A stretch of DNA of 64,000 bases from Candidatus Poribacteria bacterium (GCA_963663765.2 CAXXUA010000004.1:480001-544000), one strand, 5' to 3'; positions 18,187-50,567 are shown, counted from the first letter of the stretch. Program-made: numbers and translations. The notes: a model not told the origin generated them from the letters alone.

Positions 18187-18480
18187 TGGTAGGGTTGAGT
18201 AGAGTGAAACCCATAACTGTAAATTTAGCGAACACCAATAAGGTAGATACGGTTTCCTAACCGTACCTGGTTTATTCTGTTCTTGTAGGTTGGGTTGAGG
18301 AATGAAACCCAACCTACAAGAACATGAAGACCTAAATTGACGCTTATAGGTAAAGCAGAGCGAAACCCAGGGTTATTTAGTTATAGGTATTTTAGCTATT
18401 TCCTGAGAAAATCGCGACCGGCAAATCAACGGTATGAATGCCTGATGGCATTCCCCGGGTCGCTCCTACCGCGGGGTTTC
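18187..18480. repeat. Cluster of GTAG-type REP hairpins between nirA and the transporter
   Basis: For example TGTAGGTTGGGTT...AACCCAACCTACA, GGTAGATACGGTT-TCCT-AACCGTACC, and a CGCGACC...GGTCGCTCCTACC REP interrupted by the mini-element at 18422-18456. Confidence 0.7.
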
Positions 18481-18575
18481 TTTTTTTAAAAATCCAAAAA
18501 TTAGGAAAACTGAATAATCCTGGCGAAATCCAACAACTACTGACAACTGAAAGGAAAATATAAAATAGGTGAAAA

Positions 18576-19931
18576 ATGGATATTAAAAATAAAGCAACAC
18601 AAATTAAACTGTTTAGTTTAAAAACGGTTCAGATGCGGACGTTTCATACGACATGGTTTGCCTTTTTCTTAGCCTTTTTCGGATGGTTCGGTATTGCTCC
18701 TCTTATGGCAATTGTCCGTGAAGATTTGATGTTAACGAAGACACAAGTTGGTAACACAATAATTGCCTCTGTTGCAATTACAGTGTTGGTCAGAGTTCTC
18801 ATTGGTCCGCTTTGTGACCGAATCGGGTCTCGAAAGACGTATACGTGGCTGCTCATTCTCGGTTCAATACCGGTGATGGGTATCGGACTTGCACAGGATT
18901 ACAAGACGTTCCTGCTATTCCGTTTAGCAATTGGCGCTATTGGTGCATCATTTGTTATCACGCAGTATCACACCTCAGTCATGTTCGCGCCGAATTGTAT
19001 CGGGACTGCAAATGCTACTACTGCAGGTTGGGGAAATCTGGGAGGTGGTGTTACCCAGATGGTTATGCCGCTTATTTTTTCGGTTGTCTTGAGCTTTGGA
19101 GTGAATGAATTTCTTGGTTGGCGATTGGCTATGATTGTTCCAGGAATTGCCCTCTTTATCATGGGATTCGTCTATTACTTCTCTACCCAAGATGCACCAG
19201 ATGGCGACTATAAGGAACTTCGCGAGCGAGGTGACCTTGAACCTGCTGAAGGCAAAGGTATGGAATCTTTCTTGCTTGCAATTACAGATTATCGCGTTTG
19301 GGCACTATTTTTTATTTATGCTGCATGTTTCGGCTTAGAACTTACCATTAACAATGTTGCCGCACTTTACTACCATGACCGCTTCCAATTAAATGTCCAC
19401 ACAGCGGGACTCATTGCAGGTTTGTTCGGACTGATGAACATTTTTGCACGCACTGTCGGCGGTGTTTTCTCTGATTTCTTTGCGAAAAACATGGGGCTAC
19501 GAGGACGTGTCCTGTTTTTGTTTATTGTCCTATTAGGTGAAGGTATTATGCTTATGCTGTTCTCGCAGATGGCACTCCTCATTTTTGCTATTCTAACTAT
19601 GCTTGTCTTTAGTTTTTTTGTCCAAATGGCCGAAGGCGCAACGTATGGTATTGTCCCATTTATTAACAGGAAAGCATTAGGAGCAGTTGCTGGTATTGTC
19701 GGTGCTGGTGGAAATGCAGGAGCAGTTGCTGCAGGCTTCCTTTTTCGGGCAGAAAGTATCACAACACAGCAGGCATTCCTTTTCCTTGGTGGAATGGTAA
19801 TTGTTGGTGCATTTGGAACGGCTTTAGTGCGGTTCTCGCCCGCAGTACAAGACGCCGAAAAAAGAGCATTTAATGCTGCACTTGCAGAAAAACAACGTCT
19901 GAAGGCAGAAACAGGGAATGTCCATGCCTAA
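18576..19931 (+). CDS. Nitrate/nitrite MFS transporter (NRT2/NarK family)
   Basis: AGWGNLGGG and GIVGAGGNAG nitrate signature motifs; FGLMNIFAR. Confidence 0.92.
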   Translation: MDIKNKATQIKLFSLKTVQMRTFHTTWFAFFLAFFGWFGIAPLMAIVREDLMLTKTQVGNTIIASVAITVLVRVLIGPLCDRIGSRKTYTWLLILGSIPVMGIGLAQDYKTFLLFRLAIGAIGASFVITQYHTSVMFAPNCIGTANATTAGWGNLGGGVTQMVMPLIFSVVLSFGVNEFLGWRLAMIVPGIALFIMGFVYYFSTQDAPDGDYKELRERGDLEPAEGKGMESFLLAITDYRVWALFFIYAACFGLELTINNVAALYYHDRFQLNVHTAGLIAGLFGLMNIFARTVGGVFSDFFAKNMGLRGRVLFLFIVLLGEGIMLMLFSQMALLIFAILTMLVFSFFVQMAEGATYGIVPFINRKALGAVAGIVGAGGNAGAVAAGFLFRAESITTQQAFLFLGGMVIVGAFGTALVRFSPAVQDAEKRAFNAALAEKQRLKAETGNVHA

Positions 19932-20019
19932 TAATGTGCTTAGTCTCAATTAGCGATTGAGGTTAAAAAGCAAATAGTTAATGAAATTGTGAATTTACCT
20001 CTATTCATGGGAGATATTA

Positions 20020-22164: not shown

Positions 22165-22178
22165 ATCAAAAAAGAGAA

Positions 22179-22200
22179 GGGCAGGTAGGAATGCCTGCCC
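22179..22200. terminator. Terminator hairpin between convergent narB and VIT genes
   Basis: GGGCAGGTA-GGAA-TGCCTGCCC preceded by an A-run (T-run on the minus strand). Confidence 0.65.
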
Positions 22201-22244
22201 ATAACATTCACCGGACACGAACGCCGGTTTCGAAAATCTAAAAG

Positions 22245-24341: not shown

Positions 24342-24389
24342 TGTTCGCTCCTTTTGTTTATCATTAAATCTATTATTATAGTATATATA

Positions 24390-24470
24390 CATATAATATA
24401 TTACTATATGTAGTATACTACATGACGTGTTTGAAAGTCAAATCTATTTTTTAATGTGTAAATATTTTAG
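24390..24470 (-). promoter_or_regulatory. AT-rich promoter block, copy A
   Basis: Minus strand TTGACT...TATACT; near-identical block at about 28510-28594. Confidence 0.5.
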
Positions 24471-30502: not shown

Positions 30503-31200
30503 CTATGGACGTTCTTGTACCACAGGAATAACGTAACTTCGAATCATCAATCCATCTATCGTCTCTGTTTCTGTGCGCGGTTCTGGCGGCTCGCGATGAT
30601 CGAATACCACGTAGTAACCCTCCGTTACGCCTTCTGTTGATAGATACGCGGTGAGTTGCTGCTTTGCTTCGCCATAGTGCCGGGTACTTCGCCATATCTT
30701 TGTTTCAATGACATATTTTCTCTGATTGTGAAAAATAATCTGATCCATCCTGCCGCGGTCTGTTGGGACTTCCATATACATTGACATGTTCACGCGGGTA
30801 ATACCTTTTTCATGTGATAATGTCTCATTAGCAGCGGAAATCTGGTAGGAGCGACCTCCCGGTCGCGACCGGGAGGTCGCTCCTACCGAAGAGAGTAACC
30901 CCCTGCCAGTAAACAGTAGAATTCCTTAATGAGACAAGATTTATTTGAATTGGTATAATAAACTGGTCCAGATAAGCAAAGAGTAAGTGCTGTCCGATGA
31001 ATTCTTGAGGGTTTTCGGGGACTTGTAGAATCCTGAATCCAACTCGGGTAATTAGGTCAGGTCTTCAGCAGTAAGGGCTGCAACAGCGCGTTGGAAAAAA
31101 GTTGTCTTGCCCGATTCTCGGGGTGCAAAGATGACAATATAACGTCCCTCTTTGACGCGCTTGACGAATTCTGTGAGTTCTTCCGTTAGTGAGACAATTT
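30503..31200 (-). pseudogene. AAA-ATPase/PD-(D/E)XK nuclease gene remnant, copy B
   Basis: Walker A IFAPRESGKTT near 31105-31135, a large internal deletion near 31050, an insertion at about 30801-30958, then the same C-terminal nuclease part as copy A. Confidence 0.75.
30801..30958. mobile_element. Nested MITE/REP insertion within the AAA pseudogene
   Basis: Absent from copy A. Inner inverted repeat TGTCTCATTA / TAATGAGACA (30821-30936) encloses the palindrome GGTAGGAGCGACCTCCCGGTCGCGACCGGGAGGTCGCTCCTACC. Confidence 0.7.
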
Positions 31201-31221
31201 AATTCCCTTCATTAGAAGGCG

Positions 31222-32682: not shown

Positions 32683-32985
32683 TTTAGGAATCCTCCAATC
32701 CTCTACCCATAGGCGTCGACTTAAGAAAAAAGTGTTGGTGTTGATTCACTTCCACAATAGGTCAAAATCCTTAAGTATTGACGCATGTGGTGCAACCCGG
32801 GGATTACCGTTGGGTGAATGGGTTTGGTAGAATACGAGTATAGCATTCTACATGATTTGCTATGATTTATACCTTTGATTTCTTGATTTTCCGGTCCTTA
32901 CGACATAAATTAATAATCCACAATTTTATTCTATCTCAGAATATTTATTGAGGACAATTGCATCTAAAATCTACCAAAATTGAGT

Positions 32986-34524: not shown

Positions 34525-34635
34525 GAGTATACTCCAAACTTATGTATTGGTCAGACTGTTTTCTAATGTTGTGTTATCTGGATGATCATATATTATCACA
34601 ATCCCATTATATCTTCAATTGATTTTTGTATTGAT

Positions 34636-34818
34636 GGGTGTGTAAAGTTTTTGTAGAAACTCTGATATTAAAAGAAGTGCGTCCAGTTACTATCAAAGCT
34701 TGCTTGACGTTAGGGAACTGTGGACATCGTAGGGGCGAGGTTTCCTCGCCAGCGTAAGACTTCTTTTCGTGCGTGGAGACCCCGCCCCTACGCACAGTAA
34801 CCAAAACTTTACACACCC
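34636..34818 (+). mobile_element. 183-bp MITE with the ISKra4-like terminal repeats and REP cargo
   Basis: GGGTGTGTAAAGTTTT...AAAACTTTACACACCC, flanked by the 9-bp direct repeat TGTATTGAT; two GTAG REP-like hairpins inside. Confidence 0.88.
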
Positions 34819-34881
34819 TGTATTGATTCCCAATGACTCCATTTTGTTGGATGGTTGAAACTCAGATTTCCCCGTTTCACA

Positions 34882-35787: not shown

Positions 35788-35791
35788 AACA

Positions 35792-37672
35792 TTACCTGTC
35801 CAATACCTCATCTAATTGCCATAGATAACCAAGACCGTCCCAACCACCTGTTGCTAACTTTTTTCCATCTGGACTGAAACTTACTGCTTTCACTCCTCCA
35901 ATATGAGCTAAACAAGTATTTATGTGTTGTCCTGATTCTATATCCCAGAGTTGGGTTCCTGCACCCCAACATGCAAGTGCTATGGTTTTTCCATCAGGAC
36001 TAAAAACGAGATCTTCAACAAGAGATATTCTAATGTCAATTGTTTTCTTGATTGTTTGGGTTTGGACATCCCAAAGTATAACTGTTCTATCTCTACTGTA
36101 ACTTGCAAGAGTCTTACCATCCGGACTAAAACTGACACAATTAACTTCTTTTGTATGTCCCTCAAGAGTCATTATATAATTACCAAATTGCATATCCCAG
36201 AGACGAACGTTCGTATCATTGCTTGCACTTGCTAATAGTTTCCCATCAGGACTAATACTTACTGCATTAACTGTCTGTGAATGTCCTTCTAATATACGGT
36301 TATCTCTTTCAATATCTAAATCCCAAATTCTCACAACACTATCACTACTTCCACTTACGACCTTCTTACCATTTGGTGAAAAAGCTACACACATAACAGG
36401 ACCATCATGATTACTGAAAATATGCTTTTGAGTTCCACTGGAGATATCCCAAATAATTACATTTCTAGCCCAACCCGCACTTGCGATATGCTTGCCATCT
36501 GGACTGAAACTACATGCCAAAACATATTCTTTATGCTTTGAAAGTGTTTTGATTAATTCTCCTGAATCAGAATCCCAAATACAAAGAGTTCCTTGGTCTC
36601 TATTAGCAGTAACCACAGATTTGCCATCTGGACTAAAACTAATGTCTCTTACCACACTTGTATGTCCTTCAATTGTATTTAAATGTGCTTCGTTTTCATA
36701 ATCCCAAAATCGTATTGTGCCATCTCTACTTCCCGTTACAATCGTTTTTCCATCTGGACTAAAATTGATACTTACAAGAGTCAATGTGTGACCAGTAAAA
36801 GCTATAAGACGTGTTCCCGTTTTTACATCCCATAATCGTAGTGTTCCATCTGTATGACCAGAGAGCAACATATTTCCATCGGGACTAAAACATATCGTTT
36901 GAACTAGTGATGCACCATTTGTAGGGAAAACATTAGATTTGCCAGATGCTACATCCAACAGCATAATCGCTCGTTCATTGAATGCACTTGCAATCGTCTT
37001 TCCATCCGGACTAAAACTAATGTTATTCACACTACGTGAATGTTTAGGAAACACATGTTTGATAGCACCTGATTCTGCATCCCACAGTCGAACTGTCTGA
37101 TCCCAACTTGCACTCGCAATCGTTTTCCCATCCGGACTATAACTAACATCATCTATAATGCCGGTATGTCCAGAGAGTATTCTAATTGTTTTACCCGATG
37201 CGACATCCCAGAGTCTGAGAGTTGGTTCTCCTTGTCCGCCGCCTGTTACAATCGTCTTACCATCCGGACTATAATTAACACTCCAGACGGTATCTTTGTA
37301 GCCAATCAAAACATCCTGAATTTCACCAGATTTCGCATCCCACAAAATCACTTTTCGTCCACTTCCTACACTTGTAATCGTCTTTCCATCCGGACTATAA
37401 CAAAAATCGCTACATGTTCCATCGTGGGCAGTTAGTAATGTAATTAACTCTAATGTATTAACATCATAGATCCAAATACAGAATTGTGTTCCAACTGCAA
37501 CTTGTTTACCATCGTGAGAAAACGCAACATCTTTTACAAAACTCTTACCAAGTCTGGCGTAAGTGCCTTGTGGCAAATTCATTTGAGTTATATCAGCTGC
37601 ATGAGCTATAGATGAAATAACAATTATAGCAATAAAGAGTATTAAAGAGAAATAGATGTGGTTGGTTTTCAT
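35792..37672 (-). CDS. Secreted WD40-repeat protein
   Basis: Signal peptide and about 13-14 GH...FSPDG...WD repeats. Confidence 0.9.
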   Translation of the reverse strand: MKTNHIYFSLILFIAIIVISSIAHAADITQMNLPQGTYARLGKSFVKDVAFSHDGKQVAVGTQFCIWIYDVNTLELITLLTAHDGTCSDFCYSPDGKTITSVGSGRKVILWDAKSGEIQDVLIGYKDTVWSVNYSPDGKTIVTGGGQGEPTLRLWDVASGKTIRILSGHTGIIDDVSYSPDGKTIASASWDQTVRLWDAESGAIKHVFPKHSRSVNNISFSPDGKTIASAFNERAIMLLDVASGKSNVFPTNGASLVQTICFSPDGNMLLSGHTDGTLRLWDVKTGTRLIAFTGHTLTLVSINFSPDGKTIVTGSRDGTIRFWDYENEAHLNTIEGHTSVVRDISFSPDGKSVVTANRDQGTLCIWDSDSGELIKTLSKHKEYVLACSFSPDGKHIASAGWARNVIIWDISSGTQKHIFSNHDGPVMCVAFSPNGKKVVSGSSDSVVRIWDLDIERDNRILEGHSQTVNAVSISPDGKLLASASNDTNVRLWDMQFGNYIMTLEGHTKEVNCVSFSPDGKTLASYSRDRTVILWDVQTQTIKKTIDIRISLVEDLVFSPDGKTIALACWGAGTQLWDIESGQHINTCLAHIGGVKAVSFSPDGKKLATGGWDGLGYLWQLDEVLDR

Positions 37673-37866
37673 TTACGAATCCTTATCTACATGGAGAATA
37701 AGAGTGGAAGTACTTAGATTTATATTCTATATAAATATTGGATAGATGTCAATATTAACCCTATCCTTGCGCGGTTATTCAGTTTTGAGAATCTATCGTT
37801 ATACCAGTTAACTTTGGGTTAAGATTAGTGAAATATATATAGGAATTTTTGTGGTATTCTTGTTTA

Positions 37867-38015
37867 TTGTCTGAACCAGGATTTTCAGGATTAGCAGATT
37901 TTCAGGATTTACCTCATCATGGGTTTTTGATATGCGTTTATGCTCTCTTTTGGAATAGGATTGGATGAGAAAAATCTTGATAATCTGCTAATCCTGAAAA
38001 TCCTGGTTCAGACAA
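37867..38015. repeat. Long inverted repeat built of about 9-bp subrepeats
   Basis: TTGTCTGAACCAGGATTTTCAGGATTAGCAGATT... mirrored by ...AATCTGCTAATCCTGAAAATCCTGGTTCAGACAA. Confidence 0.8.
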
Positions 38016-38080
38016 AGAATAAATATACTACCCAGATACTCTAAAAAACTACAAGACAAGATATTACCCGATTATTTAAT

Positions 38081-38238
38081 CAGGACTTACGCAGTTTTCA
38101 TGATCCAATCAAGAATTAAGACGAAAACGATGTAATTTTCAGCATTTTTTAGGTTTCCGGCGCGCTTACAAAGCACCAAATCAACGGTATGAATGCCATT
38201 TAGGCATTCCCCGCCTACCGTTGGGTGCGTAAGTCCTG
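38081..38238. mobile_element. MITE with CAGGACTTACGCA terminal repeats, carrying a REP and the mini-element
   Basis: CAGGACTTACGCA / TGCGTAAGTCCTG with a flanking TTAAT direct repeat. Confidence 0.75.
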
Positions 38239-38588
38239 TTAATTTATCTTCATGCGGGACTGAAGAGTATGGTTGATATTAACAATATTTCCTTATATTG
38301 ACACCTATGGGTCTCTGTGTCCCGTAATCTCTGTTTAATCAGTTGCGGCGGGGCACAGAGACCCGGCGAATGCCTTTGGGCGAATGCATGTATGGTATTC
38401 GCCACGATTCATACCGTTGATTTCGCACTACAATGGAGAATGAGCAGTTTGTGCAAATACTTTACACACTACCACAACTCTGAATTATTCATTGAATCAT
38501 AATCGCACTTTTGGTATACTTTCTATACGAACATAATTCTGCGGTTGGATATGTATAAGGAAAATCAGAAGAAGTGAGGAGAAATGTT

Positions 38589-39242
38589 ATGAAAAACCTA
38601 ATCGTTATTGCAATAATTACACTTATGGTATCATCTGCGTTTGCTCACACCGCAGAAACACAGATGGTTCAAGGAGAGTATATTGAAGCACGGTCAGTCA
38701 GTGTATATGTCGGTGCATGTCATTTCGGAGCAGAATACGTTGAAGGTGGTAAAGAAGCAACGTTAATTTGGAACATCCATAGCGGAAGTTGGAACAATGT
38801 CTCTTTGGACGGATTAACCGTTGTTGCTGTCGTAAGTGCAAAAAACAATCTTGCTCTTGATACAAAAACACGAAAAAGCGTGTTGTACATAGACTCAAAA
38901 GCAACTAAGAAACAACGTACTGCTATCACCAACATGTTGATAACAAAACATGCCGATGCTCTTGGAAAAGTCGTTTCTACAATAACTTCACCAGTCACAT
39001 TCCAAAAGAATGGCACGAAATATGATGTCGCAGTTAGCAAAGTATTGGCATTGTCAGTAAATCGTTACCCTTGTGCAAAATGCACACAACCCCATAAAAT
39101 TTGGTATGAACCCTTAACAAAAATTGGGAATGCAATCGTTGGAAAATCTGTCATCTATCGTTACAAAGACAAATATCTGCCAGTAAAGTGGCAACAAGGC
39201 GATGAAATTAACAATGTTTTCGTAGGTAGTTTTTCAATTTGA
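38589..39242 (+). CDS. Secreted DUF1326-like protein
   Basis: Signal peptide; GEYIEARSVSVYVGACH and GSWNNVSLDGLTVVAVV motifs. Confidence 0.65.
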   Translation: MKNLIVIAIITLMVSSAFAHTAETQMVQGEYIEARSVSVYVGACHFGAEYVEGGKEATLIWNIHSGSWNNVSLDGLTVVAVVSAKNNLALDTKTRKSVLYIDSKATKKQRTAITNMLITKHADALGKVVSTITSPVTFQKNGTKYDVAVSKVLALSVNRYPCAKCTQPHKIWYEPLTKIGNAIVGKSVIYRYKDKYLPVKWQQGDEINNVFVGSFSI

Positions 39243-39394
39243 AGATTTACACACAGAAGTGTAGACATACACCCAAACAATAGGTAGGCGGGGAATACCA
39301 TAGTGCATTCTCCACCTACCTATTAAGTGTGTAATTAATACCAAAATCTACCATAAACGAAACATATTACCTATACCCTATTCAGAATAGCATT

Positions 39395-40042
39395 CTACAT
39401 TGTATCTCTTAATCCAGCAATAGCACCTATCATCCTTACTCCCATTTGCTGATATTTCTCGCGTTTCACATCTGATTCTACTATGTCAGTAAAGTCAATC
39501 GGTTCCCCAAACCTTACTTTCAGTTGTGTGCGTCTCAGACGTTTCTCACCACGTGGTAACATCTTTTCTGCTCCTAAGTGATATGCCGGAATCGTGGGAA
39601 CTTTAGCGTGGTCTGCAATAAAACACGCACCATCATGTGCCTTACCCAAAGTTCCATCAAAACTGCGAGTTCCCTCCGGAAAAATTAGTACAACATTACC
39701 ATCCTTCAGAAGTGAGATAGTATTTCGCAATGCCCCTAAATCGGGTTTACCCCTATTCACAGGGTATGCATTAAATGTTGAAATCAGTTGACTCAATCCC
39801 GGCACTTCAAATACATTGCTACGTGCCATAAAATGTATCTCACGATTCGCCGCAGAACCAACAATAACTGGATCTATCAAACTGATATGGTTTGCAACAA
39901 TCAACACACCACCTTCTCTTGGAATACGAATAGCACCTTCAACTTCAAGATTTCCCACAACTTTACAGAATAAGTTTGTCAGTCTATGTGCCCAACGATA
40001 TAGTCGATTAGGAGTCCAGAATTGTTGGTTGGTATACCACAT
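39395..40042 (-). CDS. plsC: 1-acyl-sn-glycerol-3-phosphate acyltransferase
   Basis: NHISLID and IFPEGTRS motifs; downstream of cmk. Confidence 0.88.
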   Translation of the reverse strand: MWYTNQQFWTPNRLYRWAHRLTNLFCKVVGNLEVEGAIRIPREGGVLIVANHISLIDPVIVGSAANREIHFMARSNVFEVPGLSQLISTFNAYPVNRGKPDLGALRNTISLLKDGNVVLIFPEGTRSFDGTLGKAHDGACFIADHAKVPTIPAYHLGAEKMLPRGEKRLRRTQLKVRFGEPIDFTDIVESDVKREKYQQMGVRMIGAIAGLRDTM

Positions 40043-40083
40043 AAAAATCTTATAGTTTAATGTGTAAAGCAATCAGTTAATTA

Positions 40084-40755
40084 TTATGTTTCATTATTGA
40101 CTCTTGATACTATATAATCAACAACGTCGTCTATCGTCTTGCCCGTTGAGTCAACTACTATTGCGTCTTTGGCAGTTCTCAATGGACTATGTTCCCGTGA
40201 TTTATCCTTCTTATCGCGTTCACTAATTTCTTTCTCTACAGCATCCAACGTTGTATCTACATCCTGTGCTTTAAGATCAGCAAATCTACGTTTCGCTCGT
40301 TCCTGAACAGACGCATCAAGGTAGAATTTAAAATCCGCATTTGGAAAAACTATAGTTGTCAAATCACGACCTTCTGCGATGATATTTCCTTTTTCACCAA
40401 TACGCACTTGATGCGCAACAATTTCTTGACGTATCTCAGGTACTTTCGCAATGTCAGCAACTAATAGATTGATTTCTTGAGAACGTATCCTTTCTGAGAC
40501 ATCCTCGTTATTCAGAAAAATCGTTTTACCATTATTCTCAAATTCTATATTACACTTTTTAACAAGTTCAATCAGTTTTGTTCTATGATTTTCAACTTTG
40601 TTATCAATAGCAAGCACTGTAACTGCCCTGTACATCGCTCCAGAATCGAGGTATAGCAATCCAAGTCGATCTGCAACACACCGAGCGACGGTGCTTTTCC
40701 CAGACCCAGCTGGACCGTCCATCGCTATTGTCACACACTTTGTTTTCTTTTTCAT
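40084..40755 (-). CDS. cmk: Cytidylate kinase
   Basis: DGPAGSGKST, LDSGAMYRA, EGRD, RDKKDKSREHSPL. Confidence 0.95.
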   Translation of the reverse strand: MKKKTKCVTIAMDGPAGSGKSTVARCVADRLGLLYLDSGAMYRAVTVLAIDNKVENHRTKLIELVKKCNIEFENNGKTIFLNNEDVSERIRSQEINLLVADIAKVPEIRQEIVAHQVRIGEKGNIIAEGRDLTTIVFPNADFKFYLDASVQERAKRRFADLKAQDVDTTLDAVEKEISERDKKDKSREHSPLRTAKDAIVVDSTGKTIDDVVDYIVSRVNNET

Positions 40756-40757
40756 TT

Positions 40758-41690
40758 CTAATGTTTATTTTCTCTTTGTTTTAATACAATTTCCTGTGCT
40801 TCTATCAGCAACTTTTGAATCTCTTTGATGTCGTTCTTTTCTAACAGTGCCTTGAATTCAATCATATTTTCAACCATCATATCAATATGTGAAATAAGAA
40901 CCTTTCTGTTCTGTAGGAAAATTCCAGACCACAATTCTGCAGAACCAGCAGCGATTCGCGTTGTATCCCGAAAACCCGTAGCCGTGAAGTCTAATGCATT
41001 CCCTCCTTGAGTGCCGACATTTGCAACTGTTCTTGCAAGGACACTTGCAGTCAAATGTGGCAGATGGCTTGCAGCACCAATGATGATATCGTGTTCCTTA
41101 GGTGAGCATATATACACATCCGAACCAACAAATTCCCATAGTTTTCTTACCAACTCTAATGCGTCAGCATCTGTGTCCTCAGTTGGCGTTAATATACAAT
41201 GAGCGTTTTCAAATAGATTGGCACGTGACGCATCAACTCCTGACTGATGCGAACCTGCCATCGGATGACCCCCAACAAAGGATATACCAAAAGACTCTGT
41301 ATCGTTTATCTGCCTTTCAACAGCATCTACAATAACTGATTTCGTGCTACCGACATCAGTAACCACCAGACTTTTCTGTTGTTTTCCAATCAACTCAATA
41401 ATCTCGGATACAAACATTGGTACAAGTGTAACAGGAGGACAAAGTACAATTAAATCACTTTCTTGGATTGCATAAGATAAATCAGTCGTTATATCATCTA
41501 CAGCATCAAGTTGTTTAGCTTTTTCAAGTCTACCGATATTCCGTCCTAATCCAATACGATGTCCCTGAAATCCGTTCCTTTTCAGTGATAGACCAAGCGA
41601 CCCACCTATTAAACCGACACCCCATATCGTTACCTGCCGCAGTTCATGTATATTTTGTGTAGTTACTTTCGGTTTAGATTTAGCAAACAT
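40758..41690 (-). CDS. tyrA: Prephenate/arogenate dehydrogenase
   Basis: GVGLIGGS, DVGSTK, GHPMAG, SHLPH, GFRDTTRIA. Confidence 0.92.
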   Translation of the reverse strand: MFAKSKPKVTTQNIHELRQVTIWGVGLIGGSLGLSLKRNGFQGHRIGLGRNIGRLEKAKQLDAVDDITTDLSYAIQESDLIVLCPPVTLVPMFVSEIIELIGKQQKSLVVTDVGSTKSVIVDAVERQINDTESFGISFVGGHPMAGSHQSGVDASRANLFENAHCILTPTEDTDADALELVRKLWEFVGSDVYICSPKEHDIIIGAASHLPHLTASVLARTVANVGTQGGNALDFTATGFRDTTRIAAGSAELWSGIFLQNRKVLISHIDMMVENMIEFKALLEKNDIKEIQKLLIEAQEIVLKQRENKH

Positions 41691-41863
41691 ACAGCAGAAT
41701 TCCTAAAGTTGAGTTTATTCAATTCTATGTTAAAACTTATCAATGTGTCAAGTGAAATCATCAAGCAAATTATTCCTATTTTTCAAAATATCCTTGAAGA
41801 ATTATACACCAACTGATAGAATAAAATAGATTTTTTCCTCAACTGATTTCAATTTTTGTAAAG

Positions 41864-43849
41864 ATGAAAATGGACACAATAAAAGAAGCACGTTACAATC
41901 TTGGGATTGCATATTTAGACGATGCACAGTATAAAGAAGCAATATCTGAATTTGATGCTATCATCAAGATGGATTCAGAATTCATTGATGCGCATTGTGG
42001 ACTCTGCCGCGCTTATTTAGGATTGAATGAACTGGATAACGCGGAAGATACTGCCAAAACAGCAATAGCATTGAATTCTGATTATGCACCAGCAATTTCA
42101 TTGATTGATGAGATAACAAATGGTCACTACAATAACGGTATAACCAATTTAAACAATCAAAGATACTATGATGCTGTTACCACTTTTCAAAAAGTCACCT
42201 CCTTGAAATCAGATTACAAAGAGGTTAACTATTATCTTGGACGCACCTATATTGAACTTAAGCAATTTGACAATGCCATTAGTTTTCTACAATCCGCATT
42301 AGATTCAGGCAAAGCAATGAACGATGTTCATTATCATCTTGGTCGCGTTTATGTTGAACAAAGAGAATTTGACAAAGCAATTCATCATCTTGAACAATCC
42401 ATCCAATATGACCCAAATCTCAAAGAAGCACACTACAATCTCGCGCATGCTTATAGAGAAACCGGGAATTTAGAAGCCGCAACCAATGCCGCAAATGAAA
42501 CATTAAGATTAGATTCAAACTATCAACCAATCCATAATCTTGTAGAAGGAATAAAACAGACACACTATAACAAGGGTATCGCATATCTTAAGGATGAACG
42601 ATATAGCGATGCTGTCGCATCATTTCAAAATGTAATAACACTTGATTCAGGTTATACTGCAGCACAATTTAATCTCGGTATTGCATACCTGAAATTGGAA
42701 AACTACTCGCGTGCTGTTGATGTACTGCAGAAAACAATCAGCCTTGACCGGACACATAAAGCCGCATACCATGCACTCGCCCTCGCACATTTCGGGCAGC
42801 ATGAGTTAGAAAAAGCAAGAAACGCTGCAAAAGAAGCATTAGATATTGATCCAAATTATCAACCGGTACGTTCATTTTTAGAAGCAATTGACCCCACTTT
42901 CACACATTTAACTATACCTAATACTAAAGAACCGGATGATGCTATCAAGTCAACAGATATAGACGACACTGGTGAAAAAACCCAAACTGCGGATGAAATA
43001 ATAGAGGAAATTGATGAAGATAACCCAATTGAAAAAGATACTCAACCGACACAAAAAACAACAAATCCCCAGAAAACCTCTGATGAAAATCCTGATATTT
43101 CAAAGGAATTATATCGTGGTAAGATATATTTAAACAGTAGTCAATATAACCAAGCTGTAGATGCATTTAAACGGATAATAAAAACAGATCCAAATTGTAT
43201 TGATGCGTACTACGGTTTGGGAAAGGCATATTTAGAGAGCGGCGCATTTGATGATGCAAAAGCTGCTGCTGAAGCAGCGTTACAACTAAATCCTCAGCAT
43301 CAACCTTCACGCGAACTACTGCGGGGGATTAAATACATTGAGAATTTGAATAGGAAACAGAAAAAAAGAAGAAAAATTGTCATTGTAGGTCTAATCGTAT
43401 TGTTAACTGCTTTTGCTGCGTTTGCAGCGTATAGTTTTGTGATTATCCCATTTATGAAACAGAGTAAACCAAGAGAAAATGGTCCCATCACTCCAAAATT
43501 ATCTGTCAATTCTAAATTAGTAGAACAATCAGGTAATGGATTCATTGATGCTGGTGAAGAAGCTCAATTAATCTTAACAGTCTCAAACAAAGGTAGTATA
43601 GCAAAAAATGTTAAGATCATGTTAAATTCAATGTCATTCAAGGGTTTAGAATTTGATTTATCAGAAAACAGGTATGATATTAAAACAAATAAAATTATCA
43701 GAATACCGATTACTGCAGATAGAAACTTGAAGGGATATAGAAAGACCTTAGATGTTGATATGCTGGATAACAAAGGAAAAACGCTTGCAGAAACAAGTAT
43801 ATCAATCGTGACGCAACCAAAAGTACCAGGGCCTGACCCCCAAAGATAA
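41864..43849 (+). CDS. TPR-repeat protein with a C-terminal TM helix and Ig-like domain
   Basis: Many AxYNLG/YHLG TPR motifs, a hydrophobic segment after KKRRK, and GNGFIDAGEEAQLILTVSNKG. Confidence 0.85.
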   Translation: MKMDTIKEARYNLGIAYLDDAQYKEAISEFDAIIKMDSEFIDAHCGLCRAYLGLNELDNAEDTAKTAIALNSDYAPAISLIDEITNGHYNNGITNLNNQRYYDAVTTFQKVTSLKSDYKEVNYYLGRTYIELKQFDNAISFLQSALDSGKAMNDVHYHLGRVYVEQREFDKAIHHLEQSIQYDPNLKEAHYNLAHAYRETGNLEAATNAANETLRLDSNYQPIHNLVEGIKQTHYNKGIAYLKDERYSDAVASFQNVITLDSGYTAAQFNLGIAYLKLENYSRAVDVLQKTISLDRTHKAAYHALALAHFGQHELEKARNAAKEALDIDPNYQPVRSFLEAIDPTFTHLTIPNTKEPDDAIKSTDIDDTGEKTQTADEIIEEIDEDNPIEKDTQPTQKTTNPQKTSDENPDISKELYRGKIYLNSSQYNQAVDAFKRIIKTDPNCIDAYYGLGKAYLESGAFDDAKAAAEAALQLNPQHQPSRELLRGIKYIENLNRKQKKRRKIVIVGLIVLLTAFAAFAAYSFVIIPFMKQSKPRENGPITPKLSVNSKLVEQSGNGFIDAGEEAQLILTVSNKGSIAKNVKIMLNSMSFKGLEFDLSENRYDIKTNKIIRIPITADRNLKGYRKTLDVDMLDNKGKTLAETSISIVTQPKVPGPDPQR

Positions 43850-43863
43850 AGGAGTCAATAACT

Positions 43864-45762
43864 ATGGAATCAAGAGATTGGGGAATTATCGGTGGAGCAG
43901 TACTTGTACTTGGATTATTATACTTTTTTATGGGTAGTTCAAAGAGTGTGGAAGTTCACTATCAAGATGCTGAAAACTTATATAAGCACAGAAATTACAA
44001 GCAAGCCATAGAAAATTATAACAAAGCAATTAAGCTGTCTAAGAAAATTGGTACCAGATCTGAAATAATTGATAGAGATTTTCCCGCTTTAGCGAACTAC
44101 AAAATTGCACTTTGTTATGACAAACTCGCTGAGACAACAAAAGAGGGGAATTATCATGAAAAAGCAATATCGCATATTCGAAAAACGTTAAATGAAACGG
44201 ATGCTTACAAACACAGAGAAAACTTATACTATCTCTGGGCACAAGTACTGTACAAAAGCAACAGTTTTCAAGAGGCAGAAGCAAAATTCTCATATTTTAT
44301 TAATGAATATCCAAATAGTATAAATGTTGTAGAAGCTCTAAATTACATTGGTACGATAAATCTTAATTCCGCTAACAACTCAAAAGCACAAGCAGCTTTT
44401 AACAGAATCATAGATGAATTTCCTACTTCAAAATATCGTAATGATGCTGAAAACCATGTCGCTCAATTGTTAGTTGAAAATAAAAATATTCCGCTCCCAT
44501 ATCCAGAAGATGAGAAAATGTACACTGCTGCCCTTGAGGAATTCAAAAAGAATGCACACTATGAAGCATATAGACTTTTCTTCACTATTATAAAACAGTA
44601 TCCTAATAGTAAATATGTTACTTTTGCCTATGAGGGAATCGGAGATATTTATTCTGAAGCAGAAAATTTTGTTAAAGCGAGAGAGTTCTATGATAATGCC
44701 AAGAATAAGACATCTGACATAAATAGAATTGATAAGTTAGGAAATAAGAAAGATCGTACCTTTCTTGTTCCAGCGACATCAGATTTAAAAATTCAACCAA
44801 AACTAAATTCGGAAATGTTCATAAAACCAATACTACTCCGAAAAGAAGGTAAATACTTTGAAGCCGCACTTTTATTTGAACAACTTTCAAAGAGTGAAAT
44901 ACCCTCTGAAGATGTAATATATGCACTCTATTGGGGTGGTTACTGTTATTATAAGTATTATAAGGTTGATACGTTAGATCAAAATATGTTAAGCAAATCT
45001 GCTGAGTTATTCAGTAGAATCACAAGAGAATATGGAGATAGATTAGAAAGTACACAAACATACTATTATCTTGCTTCTGTATATTCAGACTGGGGTAAAA
45101 TACTTGGTGGTGACATATCAAAATATCAATTGGTTATCCAAACTGTGAATATGGCAGAGGAGAAATTTGGTGATAATCTGAATTCATCTGATCAGAAATG
45201 GATGAGGGAAATGAAAAAATTCAAACAGGAAGCACTAACAAAAATTGATCCGCCTGAACCTTCCGAACCAGATTCTGTTCCGGTTATAGTAAATTTAGTA
45301 AGCGAAGGATACAAATTTCTAAATCAAGGTAATCTTGACTCTGCAGAAAAGATGGCATTAGATGCTTTGAATGCGGATCGTAATAATAAAAGAGCGTATC
45401 AGCTATTATCCGACATAAAAACTAAACACTATGATTTAGGTTGGGATTTTCTTGATGCAGAAGAATACAAAGCGGCAATTGCTAAGTTTGAAAATTGTAT
45501 AAGAATAGATCCTGAATTTAAAAAAGCATATTGTAACTTAGGAGTGACTTTCATATATCAAGAAGAATATAGTAAAGCTATAAATGAACTTAATATGGCT
45601 ATATACATTGACTCAGAGTACAAAGAAGCTTATTTCAATATTGGTCTTGCCTATTTAAGACTCGGTATGTTTGATAACGCAAAAAATGCTGCGGAAAAAG
45701 CATTAGAAATCGATCCTAAATATGAAGCAGCAAGAGTTCTAAGGAATTCAATCGCAGATTAA
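43864..45762 (+). CDS. Membrane-anchored TPR protein (BamD/YbgF-like repeats)
   Basis: N-terminal TM; repeated YPNS/FPTS motifs and C-terminal TPRs. Confidence 0.8.
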   Translation: MESRDWGIIGGAVLVLGLLYFFMGSSKSVEVHYQDAENLYKHRNYKQAIENYNKAIKLSKKIGTRSEIIDRDFPALANYKIALCYDKLAETTKEGNYHEKAISHIRKTLNETDAYKHRENLYYLWAQVLYKSNSFQEAEAKFSYFINEYPNSINVVEALNYIGTINLNSANNSKAQAAFNRIIDEFPTSKYRNDAENHVAQLLVENKNIPLPYPEDEKMYTAALEEFKKNAHYEAYRLFFTIIKQYPNSKYVTFAYEGIGDIYSEAENFVKAREFYDNAKNKTSDINRIDKLGNKKDRTFLVPATSDLKIQPKLNSEMFIKPILLRKEGKYFEAALLFEQLSKSEIPSEDVIYALYWGGYCYYKYYKVDTLDQNMLSKSAELFSRITREYGDRLESTQTYYYLASVYSDWGKILGGDISKYQLVIQTVNMAEEKFGDNLNSSDQKWMREMKKFKQEALTKIDPPEPSEPDSVPVIVNLVSEGYKFLNQGNLDSAEKMALDALNADRNNKRAYQLLSDIKTKHYDLGWDFLDAEEYKAAIAKFENCIRIDPEFKKAYCNLGVTFIYQEEYSKAINELNMAIYIDSEYKEAYFNIGLAYLRLGMFDNAKNAAEKALEIDPKYEAARVLRNSIAD

Positions 45763-45861
45763 CACTCCATTTTGCAACAAATATATTTACAAAAAGACTT
45801 ATTTAGATACATTAGATCATCAAATAGATTCTAATCATAATCCATTTAAGGAGTTCACTCA

Positions 45862-48345
45862 ATGCATAAATATTACAAATTTTTCGTTGTATTTCTATTA
45901 ATAGTTTTTACACCTTTACATACAGTGAATAGTCAAGAGGCAACACGGTATAATTTACCAGATGGTGCAATTGAACGTTTTGGAAAAGGTTGGGTTAGAG
46001 ACATAGAATTTTCTCCAAATGGAGAGAAATTTGCTGTAGCTACTACAATTGGTATTTTGATTTACGACAGTCGCACTGGTCAAGAAAAAATCTTAATTGA
46101 AGATTCAATGAGTTCCGGAGCTGAAGCACTCTCATATTCACCAACTGGTAATATCCTTGCAGTTGCTCATGAAGATTATACTATACGTCTATGGAATCCA
46201 AACTTTCAAAACCAGCAAAAACCAATCCCTACATTAAGAGGACATACAGACAGAATTCTCGCAATTAGATTCTCACCTGATGGGAAAATATTAGCAAGTG
46301 CAAGTGCAGACAGTTCTATTCGCCTTTGGAATCCGTATGGTCTTACTGATGAAGATAAACTCATAGCAATATTACCTTATAAAGCACCAGTTCGAGCAAT
46401 AGCATTCTCACCTGATAACCAACTGTTGGTGGGAGGGAGCGACGATGGAAAAATTCAAGTATGGGATTCTGGTACTGGTGATCTAATCTATAACTTCAAA
46501 GGACATGAAGAAGCTGTCCAAGCTGTCGATTTCTCAACGACTCGAACTGAACTTGCAAGTGCAGGAATTAATGGAAGAGTATTCTTGTGGAGTTTAATTG
46601 GAGAAGGTGTAAGACAAAACACCACTATACAACACAATACGGATATTTATGATTTGAAATTTTCTCCTGATGGTAATATACTTGCAACTGGTGCTGCTGA
46701 CAGATTAATTAGAATATGGAACAAGAATGCTCCAAATAAAAACACACCCCTAAAAGGACACGAAGACATTGTTTCCAATTTAGATTTCTCACCCGATGGT
46801 ACGGCGATCGTGAGCGGTAGTCCTGATGGAAGAATTCTTTTTTGGGATAGAATTGGTGAGCGAATTCGATATAAAATACTCGGACATACGGGAGGTATAA
46901 AAGCGTTAACCTACACAAACGATAACCGTATCCGAGCATGTGGCGCGGGCATAGATGGAAAACTACGTATATGGGATGCTGGGACCAGTAGCTCACTTTC
47001 AATTCTTCGTGAACATATTGGACTTACACAGGCAGTTACATTCTCAAACGATGGAAAAACCATTGCATCCGGCGGCAGTCAGGATGGAACTATTTTCTTA
47101 TCTAATGTATCTAAAGTCCTTGAATCAAGAGTTGAATTTAATGATGATAGTTTACTCAAGATATTAACCGGAAATAGACACGGAATCACTGCACTTGCGA
47201 TTACACCAGAAAATAAAACGATTGCAACAGGGGGCGATGATGGGAGAATACACATAATTGACCATGAATCTAATAAGAAATTGGTAGAACTGAAGGGACC
47301 TCAGTACAGGATTTCTGCATTGACATTTGGACTTGATAGTACCCGTCTATTCAGCGGCGAAGAAAACGGAACCGTTCGACAATGGAACAGCCTTACAGGA
47401 GAAGAAATTGGTGACGGTTTTAACGGTTCTTTTGGTGCAATTTCTGCTTTAGCATACTCGACTATCAGTAAATATCTTGCTGTTGGTGATAGAAATGGTA
47501 AGATACAATTCTATAATCCTGTCACTAATAACAGAAAAAAGATGGAATTCCAAACTCCACATCGCAGTAAAGTAACCGTTCTCATTTTTTCTAAAGACGG
47601 TAATACATTGGTGAGTGGTAGCGAAAACGGTACCATCATTCTGTGGGATATGAAAAGGGTCAATCATAGTCCTGAAGAAGTTGCTAAAATTGCGCCAAAA
47701 GGTAGAATCCATCCCATAAATGAACGAATAAACATTCCTAACAAGAATGAATTGACTGCAACAAAAATCGCTAAGATAGCTCGCTCTGCAACAGTAAATA
47801 TAATTACGCTTAATGTTAACAAAGATACTATAGGACAAGGAAGTGGATTTTTCATTAGTAATAACAAAATCGCAACTAACTATCATGTGGTTGATGGCGC
47901 GTCTTCAATATATGTTCGAATAGTTGACAAAGAAAGGTTGTACCGTGTAGAAAGTATCGTTGCTACGGACAAACCGCATGATCTTGCTATTTTAAAAGTT
48001 ACTGGTATAACTGTTCCAGTACTGACACTTGCTAATAGTGATAGTATTGAAATTGGTGAAAATGTCTACGCTGTGGGGAATCCTGGAGGATTAGAAGGCA
48101 CATTTTCACAGGGGATTATAAGCAGTATCCGCGGAAAAAATCCTAACAAATGGATCCAAATTACTGCAGCAATTTCACCAGGAAGTAGTGGTGGTGCTGT
48201 TCTCAACAGTAAAGGTGAAGTAATTGGAATAGCAACATCAGCGCACTTCAATATTGATCCAAAATTGAAAGTTAATCGTTCTCAAAATATAAATTTCGCA
48301 GTTCCTTCAAATTACCTAAAAACATTGCTTAGTAAAGTAAAATGA
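45862..48345 (+). CDS. Secreted WD40 protein fused to a trypsin-like (S1) serine protease domain
   Basis: WD40 repeats, then GSGFF, TNYHVV, DLAIL, ISPGSSGG (catalytic H/D/S). Confidence 0.88.
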   Translation: MHKYYKFFVVFLLIVFTPLHTVNSQEATRYNLPDGAIERFGKGWVRDIEFSPNGEKFAVATTIGILIYDSRTGQEKILIEDSMSSGAEALSYSPTGNILAVAHEDYTIRLWNPNFQNQQKPIPTLRGHTDRILAIRFSPDGKILASASADSSIRLWNPYGLTDEDKLIAILPYKAPVRAIAFSPDNQLLVGGSDDGKIQVWDSGTGDLIYNFKGHEEAVQAVDFSTTRTELASAGINGRVFLWSLIGEGVRQNTTIQHNTDIYDLKFSPDGNILATGAADRLIRIWNKNAPNKNTPLKGHEDIVSNLDFSPDGTAIVSGSPDGRILFWDRIGERIRYKILGHTGGIKALTYTNDNRIRACGAGIDGKLRIWDAGTSSSLSILREHIGLTQAVTFSNDGKTIASGGSQDGTIFLSNVSKVLESRVEFNDDSLLKILTGNRHGITALAITPENKTIATGGDDGRIHIIDHESNKKLVELKGPQYRISALTFGLDSTRLFSGEENGTVRQWNSLTGEEIGDGFNGSFGAISALAYSTISKYLAVGDRNGKIQFYNPVTNNRKKMEFQTPHRSKVTVLIFSKDGNTLVSGSENGTIILWDMKRVNHSPEEVAKIAPKGRIHPINERINIPNKNELTATKIAKIARSATVNIITLNVNKDTIGQGSGFFISNNKIATNYHVVDGASSIYVRIVDKERLYRVESIVATDKPHDLAILKVTGITVPVLTLANSDSIEIGENVYAVGNPGGLEGTFSQGIISSIRGKNPNKWIQITAAISPGSSGGAVLNSKGEVIGIATSAHFNIDPKLKVNRSQNINFAVPSNYLKTLLSKVK

Positions 48346-48356
48346 ACCTTAAAACA

Positions 48357-48402
48357 ATCAAAGGTAGAGTTGGATGTTTATCATTCCTACTCTACCTTTG
48401 AT
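48357..48402. terminator. Bidirectional terminator hairpin
   Basis: ATCAAAGGTAGAGT...ACTCTACCTTTGAT between convergent genes. Confidence 0.7.
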
Positions 48403-48441
48403 ACAGATTCTCTGAAATTATAGTTTTTTAGTACATCTACA

Positions 48442-49212
48442 CTACTCCTTAATCACAAAGAACTTCTCCTCCTTAATCTGTTCTTCTGAGAACCGCGCAC
48501 GCGTCCATATCGCCTTAGAATTCTCAATCATCTGTGGATGTCCGCATGCATACACAACCGAATTTGTATGGTCAAAACCCATCTGATCCCCATATTTCCG
48601 TATAACATCCTCTGCACGTCCACTTTCACCTTCCCAATCTGTATCTTCCCAAGGACGACTCACCGTCGGAACAAACGAAAACCACTCCTCCTGTGCAGCA
48701 AGCTCATTCATTTCATCCATATAATACCCCAGTTCCCATGAACGACTCGCACCAACAATCACAAGAATCTGATGTGGACTTGATTTTCCCTGTTCCTGCT
48801 CAATTTTCTGAGTGCGTGCAATACTAATATAGGGTGCAGCTCCAGTGACCGTACCTGCCATTACGTGACGCGTCATACCGCTTTCCGTATCCATTACAAA
48901 CTTTCCAACAAGACGATCCCTAATGAACACTTTATCACCAAGTTTCAATTCCCAAAACAGAGGAGTCGTCGCACCCTCAGGCACCAGCTCCACAAATACT
49001 TCCATAAATGGTTCGTGCGGAGACGAGACAATTGAATAGGGACGTTGTACAATCTTTTCATTAATCTCAAATCCAATTGTAGCATATTGTCCCGGAATGA
49101 AAGGGAGTTGTTGGTCAGTCTTGAATTTAAAAGCAGCTAAATCTTCCGAAAAATCTTCACGTTCAATAAGTTCACCCATACAGTAACGCGATCTGGAACT
49201 TCTTCTTTGCAT
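48442..49212 (-). CDS. fpr: Ferredoxin--NADP+ reductase (bacterial FPR type)
   Basis: PGQY, RPYSIVS, TGAAPY, YACGHPQMI, EEKF. Confidence 0.85.
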   Translation of the reverse strand: MQRRSSRSRYCMGELIEREDFSEDLAAFKFKTDQQLPFIPGQYATIGFEINEKIVQRPYSIVSSPHEPFMEVFVELVPEGATTPLFWELKLGDKVFIRDRLVGKFVMDTESGMTRHVMAGTVTGAAPYISIARTQKIEQEQGKSSPHQILVIVGASRSWELGYYMDEMNELAAQEEWFSFVPTVSRPWEDTDWEGESGRAEDVIRKYGDQMGFDHTNSVVYACGHPQMIENSKAIWTRARFSEEQIKEEKFFVIKE

Positions 49213-49557
49213 ATTCTCTTCCTTGATAGTTTTAGTTTGTGGTTTCTATTTACCTCCCATATATTATACTTAAAACACTATTCTTTATCAAATATTTTTT
49301 AACAGGGTTATTAAGTTTTCCTAATGTTCAGATTATATAAAAAGAGAAATCCCCTCGGTAGGAGCAACCTACCGGTCGCGATTTACACATCTAACGCGTA
49401 AAACGCGTAAAACTAAATAAACCTGATTTATTAATAACAGGACATACGTAAAAACGGTAGGCGCGCTTTGATGAAGATAAAAAAATACTTGGGTAATTCT
49501 CCTAATCCAGCCACGGTAGGCGTGCTTTGTAAACGAGTGGACACATCAAGTCCTAAG

Positions 49558-50193
49558 AGCGCGCTTACAAAGCACGCCTACAATCGGGGGCGCGCTTACA
49601 AAGCACGCCTACAATCGGGGACGCGCTTACAAAGCACGCATACAATCGGAGACGCGCTTACAAAGCACGCCTACAATCGGGGACGCGCTTACAAACCACG
49701 CCTACAATCGGGCGCGCTTACAAAGCACGCATACAATCGGGGACGCGCTTACAAACCACGCCTACAATCGGGCGCGCGCTTACAAACCACGCATACAACC
49801 GGGGACGCGCTTACAAACCACGCATACAATCGGGGACGCGCTTACAAACCACGCATACCAGCGGGGACGCGCTTACAAACCACGCATACAATCGGGGACG
49901 CGCTTACAAACCACGCATACAATCGGGGACGCGCTTACAAACCACGCATACAATCGGGGACGCGCTTACAAACCACGCATACCAGCGGGGACGCGCTTAC
50001 AAACCACGCATACAATCGGGGACGCGCTTACAAACCACGCATACAATCGGGGACGCGCTTACAAACCACGCATACAATCGGGGACGCGCTTACAAACCAC
50101 GCATACAATCGGGGACGCGCTTACAAACCACGCATACCAGCGGGGACGCGCTTACAAACCACGCATACAATCGGGGACGCGCTTACAAAGCAC
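49558..50193 (-). repeat. Tandem array of 21 REP-like 31-bp units
   Basis: Unit GGGGACGCGCTTACAAACCACGCATACAATC. The reverse complement of the leftmost copies is GTAG followed by a GCGTGCTT-TGT-AAGCGCGC hairpin; no unique spacers. Confidence 0.92.
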
Positions 50194-50567
50194 CAAATCA
50201 ACGGTATGAATCATGGAGCATGCCACACGCGCATGCTTCCTTAGGCATTCCCCGCCTAACGTCTGAAAAATATTTATTACCCGATTAATAAATTAATCTT
50301 CATACGGGATAATAAATTAATCTTCATACGGGAGTAAAAAGCGATGTTTATGTTTCAATAATCTAAAATTGATGTATAAAGTTCGGTTAGGAAAATGTAC
50401 CTGTGTATTAACTTTCAGTAATTCTCAATAACAGAAAACTCTTAAAACTGAATAACCTTGCGAGATTGCCATATTACTTGAGAACTAATAAACACTATGA
50501 TATACTTTAGCACAATTGAAGTGAAACAAAACCGTAGGATCTCAACCACCCATAAAGGAATCTATAG

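Follow-up and report, generated by a model that had tools for sequence, protein, structure and literature searches.

The small dispersed repeats (SDR families) of Nostoc punctiforme and its relatives, reportedly described by Elhai et al. in 2008, are to our knowledge the only described elements of such small size, and we know of no mechanism put forward for them since. Their units of about 21–27 nt are non-coding, occur dispersed by the hundred and also in tandem, are nested in other repeats and hairpins, and have no known mobiliser. Among hairpin repeats, the GTAG superfamily of repetitive extragenic palindromes (REPs) is distinguished by the tetranucleotide GTAG directly 5' of the hairpin. 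The Nostoc repeats are cited in passages of PMC5861425, PMC3116915 and PMC2884548. Here we describe an element of similar dimensions in a stretch of 64,000 nt from the genome of a sponge symbiont, a member of Candidatus Poribacteria (contig C4, 480001–544000; hereafter the window, to whose numbering all coordinates without a contig name refer). It consists of an 8-nt head followed by a small hairpin, and it recurs inside other repeats throughout the genome.

Like the Nostoc repeats, this element is non-coding, has units of 26–27 nt that are both dispersed and tandem, and is nested in repeats for which matching empty copies exist. It appears to differ from them in its sequence, and differs in an octamer head that itself forms arrays, in the bulge of its hairpin, and in its growth at the junction of head and hairpin. 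At set positions in many unrelated hairpin repeats, the block of head and hairpin is either wholly there or wholly missing, with a precision of one or two bases; it occupies different hosts in different species, with copy numbers that differ more than 100-fold between congeneric genomes; and its chains grow in one direction, from the head-hairpin junction, including by units of a second hairpin family. On balance, we lean towards reading it as a very small, non-autonomous, non-coding mobile module of the kind represented by the Nostoc repeats, which spreads mostly together with its host repeats. Few apparently mobile DNA elements are known to be as small as this one, which at 35 bases comprises an 8-base head and a small hairpin, and our literature searches found no description of such repeats in Poribacteria.

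The assembly containing the window comprises 6.35 Mb in 15 contigs, with 41% G+C and a completeness of 97.8%, and a sponge metagenome is among the sequencing runs that contain the window region. The HIP1 motif, at 58 copies, shows no enrichment in this genome, which is thus not that of a cyanobacterium. The 17-mer AAATCAACGGTATGAAT, by which the element was counted, occurs in the window four times exactly and six times at up to three mismatches, against a mean of 0.52 in shuffled sequences, none of 100 of which reached six. Four copies read exactly as a first-pass annotation, made from the sequence alone, had given them in position, strand and length. Copy 1 (18422–18456, plus strand, 35 nt) is of the short form, composed of C, the head AAATCAAC and a 26-nt hairpin unit, GGTATGAATGCC-TGAT-GGCATTCCCC, with the loop TGAT; it occupies the loop of a REP-B-like hairpin (18411–18470, plus strand) that reads ..TCGCGACCGG[E]GGGTCGCTCCTACC, where E denotes the element, and that falls in a flank cluster (cluster 3) of 26 members. 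Copy 2 (38177–38212, plus strand, 36 nt) has the same build with the loop ATTTA and lies between AAAGCAC and GCCTACC of a REP-A, which is itself carried by a full copy of a miniature inverted-repeat transposable element (MITE), MITE-A (38081–38238, plus strand), with 13-nt inverted ends CAGGACTTACGCA and a length of 122 nt without the element. Copy 3 (38365–38424, minus strand, 60 nt) is of the long form, in which the head is followed by an outer hairpin that holds an inner hairpin, GGCGAATAC..GCATTCGCC, in its loop; the flanks of 38365–38424 are those of a GTAG(G/T)GC hairpin, GTAGTGC-G[E]G-GGTCTCTGTGCCCCGCC. Copy 4 (50194–50253, plus strand, 60 nt) is likewise of the long form, with the inner hairpin GGAGCATGC..GCATGCTTC, and stands in the last unit of a tandem array of REP-A (49561–50193, plus strand; 31-nt period, about 21 units). 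A fifth, decayed copy, found as a two-mismatch match (32799–32890, minus strand), carries a pair of heads (AAAATCAAG AAATCAAA), and its hairpin unit is of the long form with double nesting.

Three host types are indeed interrupted, as had been noted at the outset: the REP-B-like hairpin at site 1, REP-A at sites 2 and 4, and the GTAG(G/T)GC hairpin at site 3. The copies at 38177 and 50194, for which descent from a single event had been suggested, share a target position but differ in form (36 versus 60 nt) and in setting (MITE versus tandem array). In predictions of DNA folding the short copies reach -6.9 kcal/mol, with z-scores of -3.1 and -3.8 against shuffles, whereas the long copies as wholes show no advantage over shuffles (z -1.9 and -0.6); the filled MITE-A around copy 2 is predicted to form one long hairpin topped by the element (-18.2 kcal/mol, z -3.3). 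In MITE-A copies the host sequence TACCGTTG, immediately right of the insertion point (for example 38213–38225), complements CAACGGTA, a sequence of the element at its head-hairpin junction. Close to copy 4, a mechanically called 258-aa open reading frame (ORF; 49468..50244) overlies the REP-A array and is probably not a gene, while another small repeat (..TAATAAATTAATCTTCATACGGGA) stands in two copies side by side at 50283–50335 and elsewhere in the genome interrupts the loop of a hairpin unit. The window has no Rfam match at gathering scores, nor has 38050–38460 any at E up to 1.

Across the genome the 17-mer occurs 466 times exactly (219 plus, 247 minus) and 604 times at up to two mismatches, and parsing recovered 772 hairpin units in 624 chains, 538 of them head-bearing. 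Later counts use these 538 chains, the head-less set (86 chains, 84 of a single unit) being rich in chance pattern matches in coding DNA. A block consists of the 8-nt head, often preceded by copies of AAATCAAG, and of at least one bulged hairpin unit of 26–27 nt laid out as GG-TAT-GAATGCC, loop, GGCATTC-CCC; the grammar of a whole chain can be written as x (AAATCAA G)n AAATCAA C (U G)m, with U for the hairpin unit and with the first x being C in 457 of 538 chains. Separators are regular, with G between heads, C before the first unit, and G between units at 138 of 148 junctions. Most units measure 26–27 nt (n=622), the remainder including lengths of 51 nt (n=59) and 37 nt (n=21), and G-GTAT precedes the hairpin in 515 of the 622 short units; the GTAG tag belongs to the hosts. 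The numbers of heads and units covary, more than one unit being found in 6 of 315 one-head chains as against 86 of 171 two-head chains; chains reach seven units, and arrays of 8 and of 10 abutting head-plus-hairpin units are also present.

Behind the same head stands a second hairpin family, AAATCAAC-GCC(A/G)AATGC..., in 138 copies, and at 12 places a unit of the first family directly follows one of the second. The two 60-nt forms had been noted to differ in their inner hairpins, and these prove to be real families of 40 and 11 genomic copies; those of copies 3 and 4 differ, as read from the sequences, by two compensatory pairs. All 51 inner hairpins lie inside an outer hairpin, which indicates that the long form is a subfamily and no separate mobile piece. 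Compensatory variants preserve the 7-bp stem, GAATGCT/AGCATTC in 31 copies and GAATACC/GGTATTC in 22; many changes also break pairs (137 of 233 changed cells), and the copies share descent. A palindromic variant at C4:107366, in which head and left arm are mirrored (AAATCAACGGTATGAAT..ATTCATACCGTTGATTT), lies within a GTAGGTCC/GGACCTAC hairpin. The element thus defined encodes nothing and comprises one internal hairpin with an asymmetric head. It shares with the pneumococcal BOX and the E. coli bacterial interspersed mosaic elements (BIMEs) a composition of modules whose number varies between copies, but its modules are smaller, are added one way, and are nested in unrelated hosts. Unlike a classical MITE, it has neither terminal inverted repeats nor a target-site duplication, and its single hairpin is internal.

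The surroundings of the element are themselves overwhelmingly repetitive. With a flank called repeated when its 11-mer has at least four genomic copies, 438 of the 538 chains have repeated flanks on both sides, 87 more on one side, and only 13 have rare flanks on both; among seven chains whose flanks both occur at most twice, most lie in diverged known hosts and one in an apparently unique hairpin. The flank contexts fall into 119 clusters (sizes 200, 61, 38, 26, 18, 17, 17, 15 and smaller), of which 95 are singletons. REP-A serves as host on its own, in tandem arrays and within the 122-nt MITE-A; further hosts are the loop of the second hairpin family, the REP-B hairpin, a REP-D composite, the GTAGGGC hairpin and others. 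The first-pass annotation had placed the element only inside REP hairpins. Its emphasis on repeats was well founded, in that most copies have repeated DNA on either side, but its restriction to REPs was too narrow, MITEs, the second head-plus-hairpin family and other hairpins being hosts as well. Some hosts are entered in the loop of their predicted hairpin, others in the stem. Long open frames make up 75.5% of the genome, yet they enclose only 61 of the 624 chains completely. The target duplication whose absence had been remarked at the four sites of the window is absent from the flanks of every host class examined. Untouched host sites have no common sequence on the left, though C before and G after the point are frequent, and added units always stand 3' of AAATCAAC; a target logo, dominated by REP-A variants, was not used.

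Several of these hosts exist in the same genome both with and without the element. The REP-A flank pair ACAAAGCAC|GCCTACCGT is filled in 74 copies and empty in 135, the pair CAAATGCGC|GTATGGCAT is filled in 48 and empty in 57, and the pair TCGTAGGTC|GGGTAGAGC is filled in 3 and empty in 21; the REP-A core as such is found 170 times with a head and 1076 times empty. The REP-D composite with the same outer anchors is filled in 20 copies and empty in 37, and the host of site 3, TTGTAGGGC-GG-GGTCTCTG, is filled in 10 and empty in 7. For REP-B the empty loops read GGGA (346 copies), AGGA (100) or GTGA (43), while filled copies read GG[E]G. The earlier statement that removal of the element restores the host was therefore right for the several hosts with exact empty paralogues and one base off at site 1, where the loop is GGGA as opposed to GG[E]G. 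Full copies of MITE-A (n=274) comprise 159 that are empty, 98 with one chain, 16 with two and one with three. When the chains were removed in silico, 13 of 91 filled copies matched some empty copy at 99% identity or more, and the nearest neighbour was empty for 39 of the 91.

The internal order of the chains gives a direction to their growth. Among single-unit chains the loops are typical of the host, being ATTTA in 56 of 83 chains in host A and ATTAA in 27 of 39 in host C. In 18 multi-unit chains of hosts A and C the order runs from a TTTT-loop unit at the start to the host-typical one at the end, and the reverse order does not occur, which places the arrival of new units beside the head.

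Beyond this genome, the element was traced in a phylum sample of 151 genomes including the window's own. The exact 17-mer is present in all 37 other genomes of the window's genus (g1), at 1–404 copies as compared with 466 in the window's genome, and the hairpin core likewise in 37 of 37. In the sister genus g9 the 17-mer occurs in 27 of 57 genomes (mostly in 1–2 copies, up to 69) and the hairpin core in 47 of 57; in genus g6 each occurs in 1 of 20; and the remaining 36 genomes of the phylum have neither. Public genomes containing the 17-mer are nearly all titled Candidatus Poribacteria. The seven loci from outside the Poribacteria and the 21 viral contigs that contain the 17-mer, examined as controls, all lack the hairpin arm and are thus taken as chance or coding matches. 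Loci of other Poribacteria species yielded 91 complete chains in 59 flank pairs, only six of which are common to the window's genome, and in 80 of the 91 the element is followed directly by G. One species has its own variant: genome G018 holds 20 exact copies and 92 at up to two mismatches, and 28 of the 30 one-mismatch places listed read GAATCAAC. In the closed genome G048, which lacks a Y1 transposase, C1:1044373–1044599 holds seven head-plus-hairpin units at an exact spacing of 35 nt. The initial perception of an extremely small non-coding element lodged in other repeats is upheld by the exact empty paralogues, by the 119 contexts, by the mostly different contexts in other species, and by the range of 1–466 copies among the genomes of the genus.

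An affinity with the IS110/IS1111 family had been proposed at first, and two features of that family are indeed shared: its targets include REP-like hairpins and it makes no target duplication. However, neither DEDD_Tnp_IS110 (PF01548) nor Transposase_20 (PF02371) has a single match in the 97.8%-complete genome, although control genomes gave matches, and GAATGCC/GGCATTC, read initially as a possible pair of subterminal inverted repeats, is a single hairpin. A long copy with the same ends enclosing a transposase had also been envisaged; none was found, as the stretches between neighbouring copies hold no repeated gene, and 23 heads that lack a right arm either run into other small repeats or are truncated. 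As to the suggestion that an enzyme encoded elsewhere mobilises the element, any mover would indeed have to be encoded elsewhere, but it is not one of the IS110 type.

Several results weigh against reading the element as a mobile module, and we take them up here together with the explanations on which they bear. In the relatives compared, no orthologous site was found filled in one genome and empty in another. These relatives are about 85–90% identical in the flanking genes and have other repeats in the same gaps (12 relatives at site 1; G042 at sites 2 and 3). The contigs of four sponge-metagenome runs aligned to 31000–50999 end at 37829 and restart at 38428, and no copy is bridged. Skips of 36 nt (38175>38212) and 59 nt (38364>38424) were considered as alleles and rejected, as their sides extend over at most 31 nt and they are most likely paralogues. 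A query with the neighbouring gene found no contig of the same species in a metagenome collection, the best match having 92% amino-acid identity. Furthermore, in a tree of 231 MITE-A copies, built from the 122-nt alignment with the element removed, the filled state changes 65 times as against 71 +/- 3.9 for shuffled labels; the tree is too weak to count events, and the figure may be noise. Not all events are clean, two nucleotides being lost in the REP-D host and one in the REP-B loop, and at a second MITE-A site GCTTAC has become GCCTAC in most filled copies. As a separate observation, the gaps between conserved genes at 17700–19000 and 37250–38950 hold wholly different sets of repeats in congeneric species, from which it follows that repeat content turns over faster than species diverge.

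The tie between loop variants and host family means that independent insertions may be far fewer than copies, and in its strongest form this leads to an alternative in which the module reached a small number of repeat families in the distant past and is now immobile, if it ever moved, its present numbers and contexts having been shaped by amplification of its hosts and by recombination, gene conversion and deletion among some 600 copies, processes that reassort left and right flanks. Much of the copy number does come from riding on amplifying hosts, namely MITE-A, the REP-A arrays and the REP-D composite. The 20 filled REP-D copies, with long identical flanks and the same 2-nt loss, resemble one event followed by amplification; many of the singleton contexts are chimeras of left and right halves taken from different known hosts; and no mobilising enzyme was found. 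Recombination, however, needs flanking homology, and cannot put an identically cut block into at least 10 unrelated host families, mostly others elsewhere. Nor does passive carriage sit well with the one-way addition of foreign units beside the head, with species-specific sequence variants and a more than 100-fold spread of copy number within one genus, or with the 13 filled MITE-A copies nearly identical to empty ones. We consider it unlikely that the module is nothing but cargo of this kind.

The genes that might be expected to move such a block were sought in the same genome and in its relatives. At C4:621598–622077, about 78 kb past the window, lies an intact gene for a 159-aa HUH protein resembling the REP-associated tyrosine transposases (RAYTs), with GTAG-tagged REP-D arrays on both sides. 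A second RAYT-like gene, frameshifted and cut by the end of its contig (C10:24997–25277), adjoins a REP-A array and has one copy of the element about 420 nt upstream; the genome also holds a short RAYT-like fragment. Insertion sequences of the IS200/IS605 family (tnpA plus tnpB) occur on C5 and C3 as three 1.75-kb copies about 98% identical, each after TTAAC, and as one further rearranged copy. These resident elements were discarded as a source of the element's ends, their target being TTAAC, their hairpins unrelated, and no element motif lying within 1.5 kb of them. The integron integrase model TIGR02249 gave four weak matches, none above cut-off, and IS91-type Y2_Tnp gave none, but there the control genomes were silent too. 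Element orientation is clustered along the genome (208 switches as against 306 +/- 12 in shuffles) and bears no link to the strand of long ORFs; its odds ratio of about 2 with local GC skew, over all copies, is not significant once copies within 3 kb count once, in a genome of weak skew, which is a further point on the negative side. In the closed genome G048 the element's strands are mixed along the chromosome.

A hairpin with a fixed 5' sequence and the absence of target duplication are hallmarks of single-strand HUH transposition, as in IS608, and of RAYT-REP systems. It may accordingly be asked whether the block is a REP-type element whose mover is an HUH enzyme of the Y1 type (a RAYT or the TnpA of an IS200/IS605 element), with the hairpin behind 5' GTAT and the head serving as recognition and cleavage sites, and with copies in HUH-less genomes as leftovers. 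The block has the features concerned, in that a constant short sequence precedes its hairpin, its target is not duplicated, and new units are placed 3' of one octamer, and the RAYT and IS200/IS605 genes just described are at hand in the genome. With IS200/IS605, for which IS608 is the model, it shares a dependence on hairpins, the lack of target duplication and, for added units, a position directly 3' of a fixed sequence (here AAATCAAC), but it has one hairpin in 27–36 nt where those elements have two different ends and more than 100 nt, and it shows no clear strand bias. With the REP/REPIN-RAYT systems (PMC3116915) it shares a short hairpin with a fixed 5' tag, a high copy number, a mostly intergenic position and clustering into repeat mosaics; yet its tag is GTAT, not GTAG, followed by an octamer head, it lies inside REPs rather than beside them, and neither the intact RAYT, between its REP-D arrays, nor the broken one, beside REP-A, is flanked by it.

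The distribution of these enzymes among relatives argues against HUH mobilisation as well. Y1_Tnp (PF01797) has no match in G048, which is closed and holds 131 exact copies of the element, or in G001 (4 contigs, 96 copies), while G003 has one copy of the 17-mer yet three Y1_Tnp matches. A RAYT query found no match in 11 of 39 genomes of genus g1, including G014 with 232 copies and G048, and the closest orthologues (88–94% identity) come from G005, G056 and G007, with 53, 4 and 14 copies respectively; RAYT presence does not follow copy number, and a RAYT or other HUH enzyme as mobiliser was rejected for want of association. The fraction of exact copies, tried as a sign of decay in HUH-less genomes, is inconsistent, being 0.87 in G014 and 0.84 in G013 (232/268 and 107/128, the highest fractions, with no match to the RAYT query in either) as against 0.60 in G048 and 0.58 in G001. 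Taken together, no enzyme has been found, the presumed mover is not of the IS110 type, and no HUH (Y1) gene is needed for copies to be present. Mobilisation by such an enzyme is in our estimate distinctly unlikely.

One arrangement is hard to derive by simple insertion: chains of the order H-H-U-U, with H for the head and with their separators, are observed and could not arise by one contiguous insertion into H-U, which tells against a straightforward insertion of the module. It fits instead junctions that lie within the head on the left and at GG on the right, as would be produced by template switching without a dedicated enzyme, in which a nascent strand would stall at a host hairpin, jump by microhomology (the head or C), copy to the end of the hairpin, and return at G or GG. 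Consistent with such a course are the insertion points in or beside hairpins, the G after the element in most chains elsewhere and the C before the head in most chains here, the unclean junctions with 1–2 nt lost or flanks converted, and the presence of the element in genomes without an HUH transposase. A microhomology of one base, however, predicts scattered left boundaries that carry donor flank, whereas the observed left boundary is constant in unrelated hosts; and a 17-mer near-invariant across species about 80–90% identical suggests recognition by a protein. Template switching alone therefore appears to us very unlikely.

If the element is a mobile module, as we favour, the following course can be envisaged. 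The block would be recognised as folded single-stranded DNA by an enzyme acting in trans, which would cut before or after the head, and the cut piece would be joined into or beside another hairpin's loop, in most cases in front of a G. Later units could then dock at the head, in a manner comparable to the insertion of IS200/IS605 elements 3' of a constant short sequence, and a module once placed would multiply mainly along with its hosts. More tentatively still, and with a likelihood that we would put well short of even, the mover may lie outside all known transposase families, being either a conserved cellular enzyme that acts on folded single-stranded DNA or template switching itself, with the head as a landing pad for 27-nt units. 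If this were true, the element would be the smallest self-defining mobile DNA and would spread by an undescribed mechanism.

How REP-like and smaller repeats spread is a long-standing open question, and the Poribacteria are a second, unrelated bacterial group with an element of this kind. The 94 sampled genomes of two sister genera, with 0–466 copies, allow the mobiliser to be sought by comparison, and the clear grammar of the element, comprising head, hairpin, fixed separators and one-way growth, constrains any model of its movement. For the Poribacteria themselves, such repeats fill the intergenic space, outpace the divergence of species in their turnover, and break short-read assemblies at the places where they lie.

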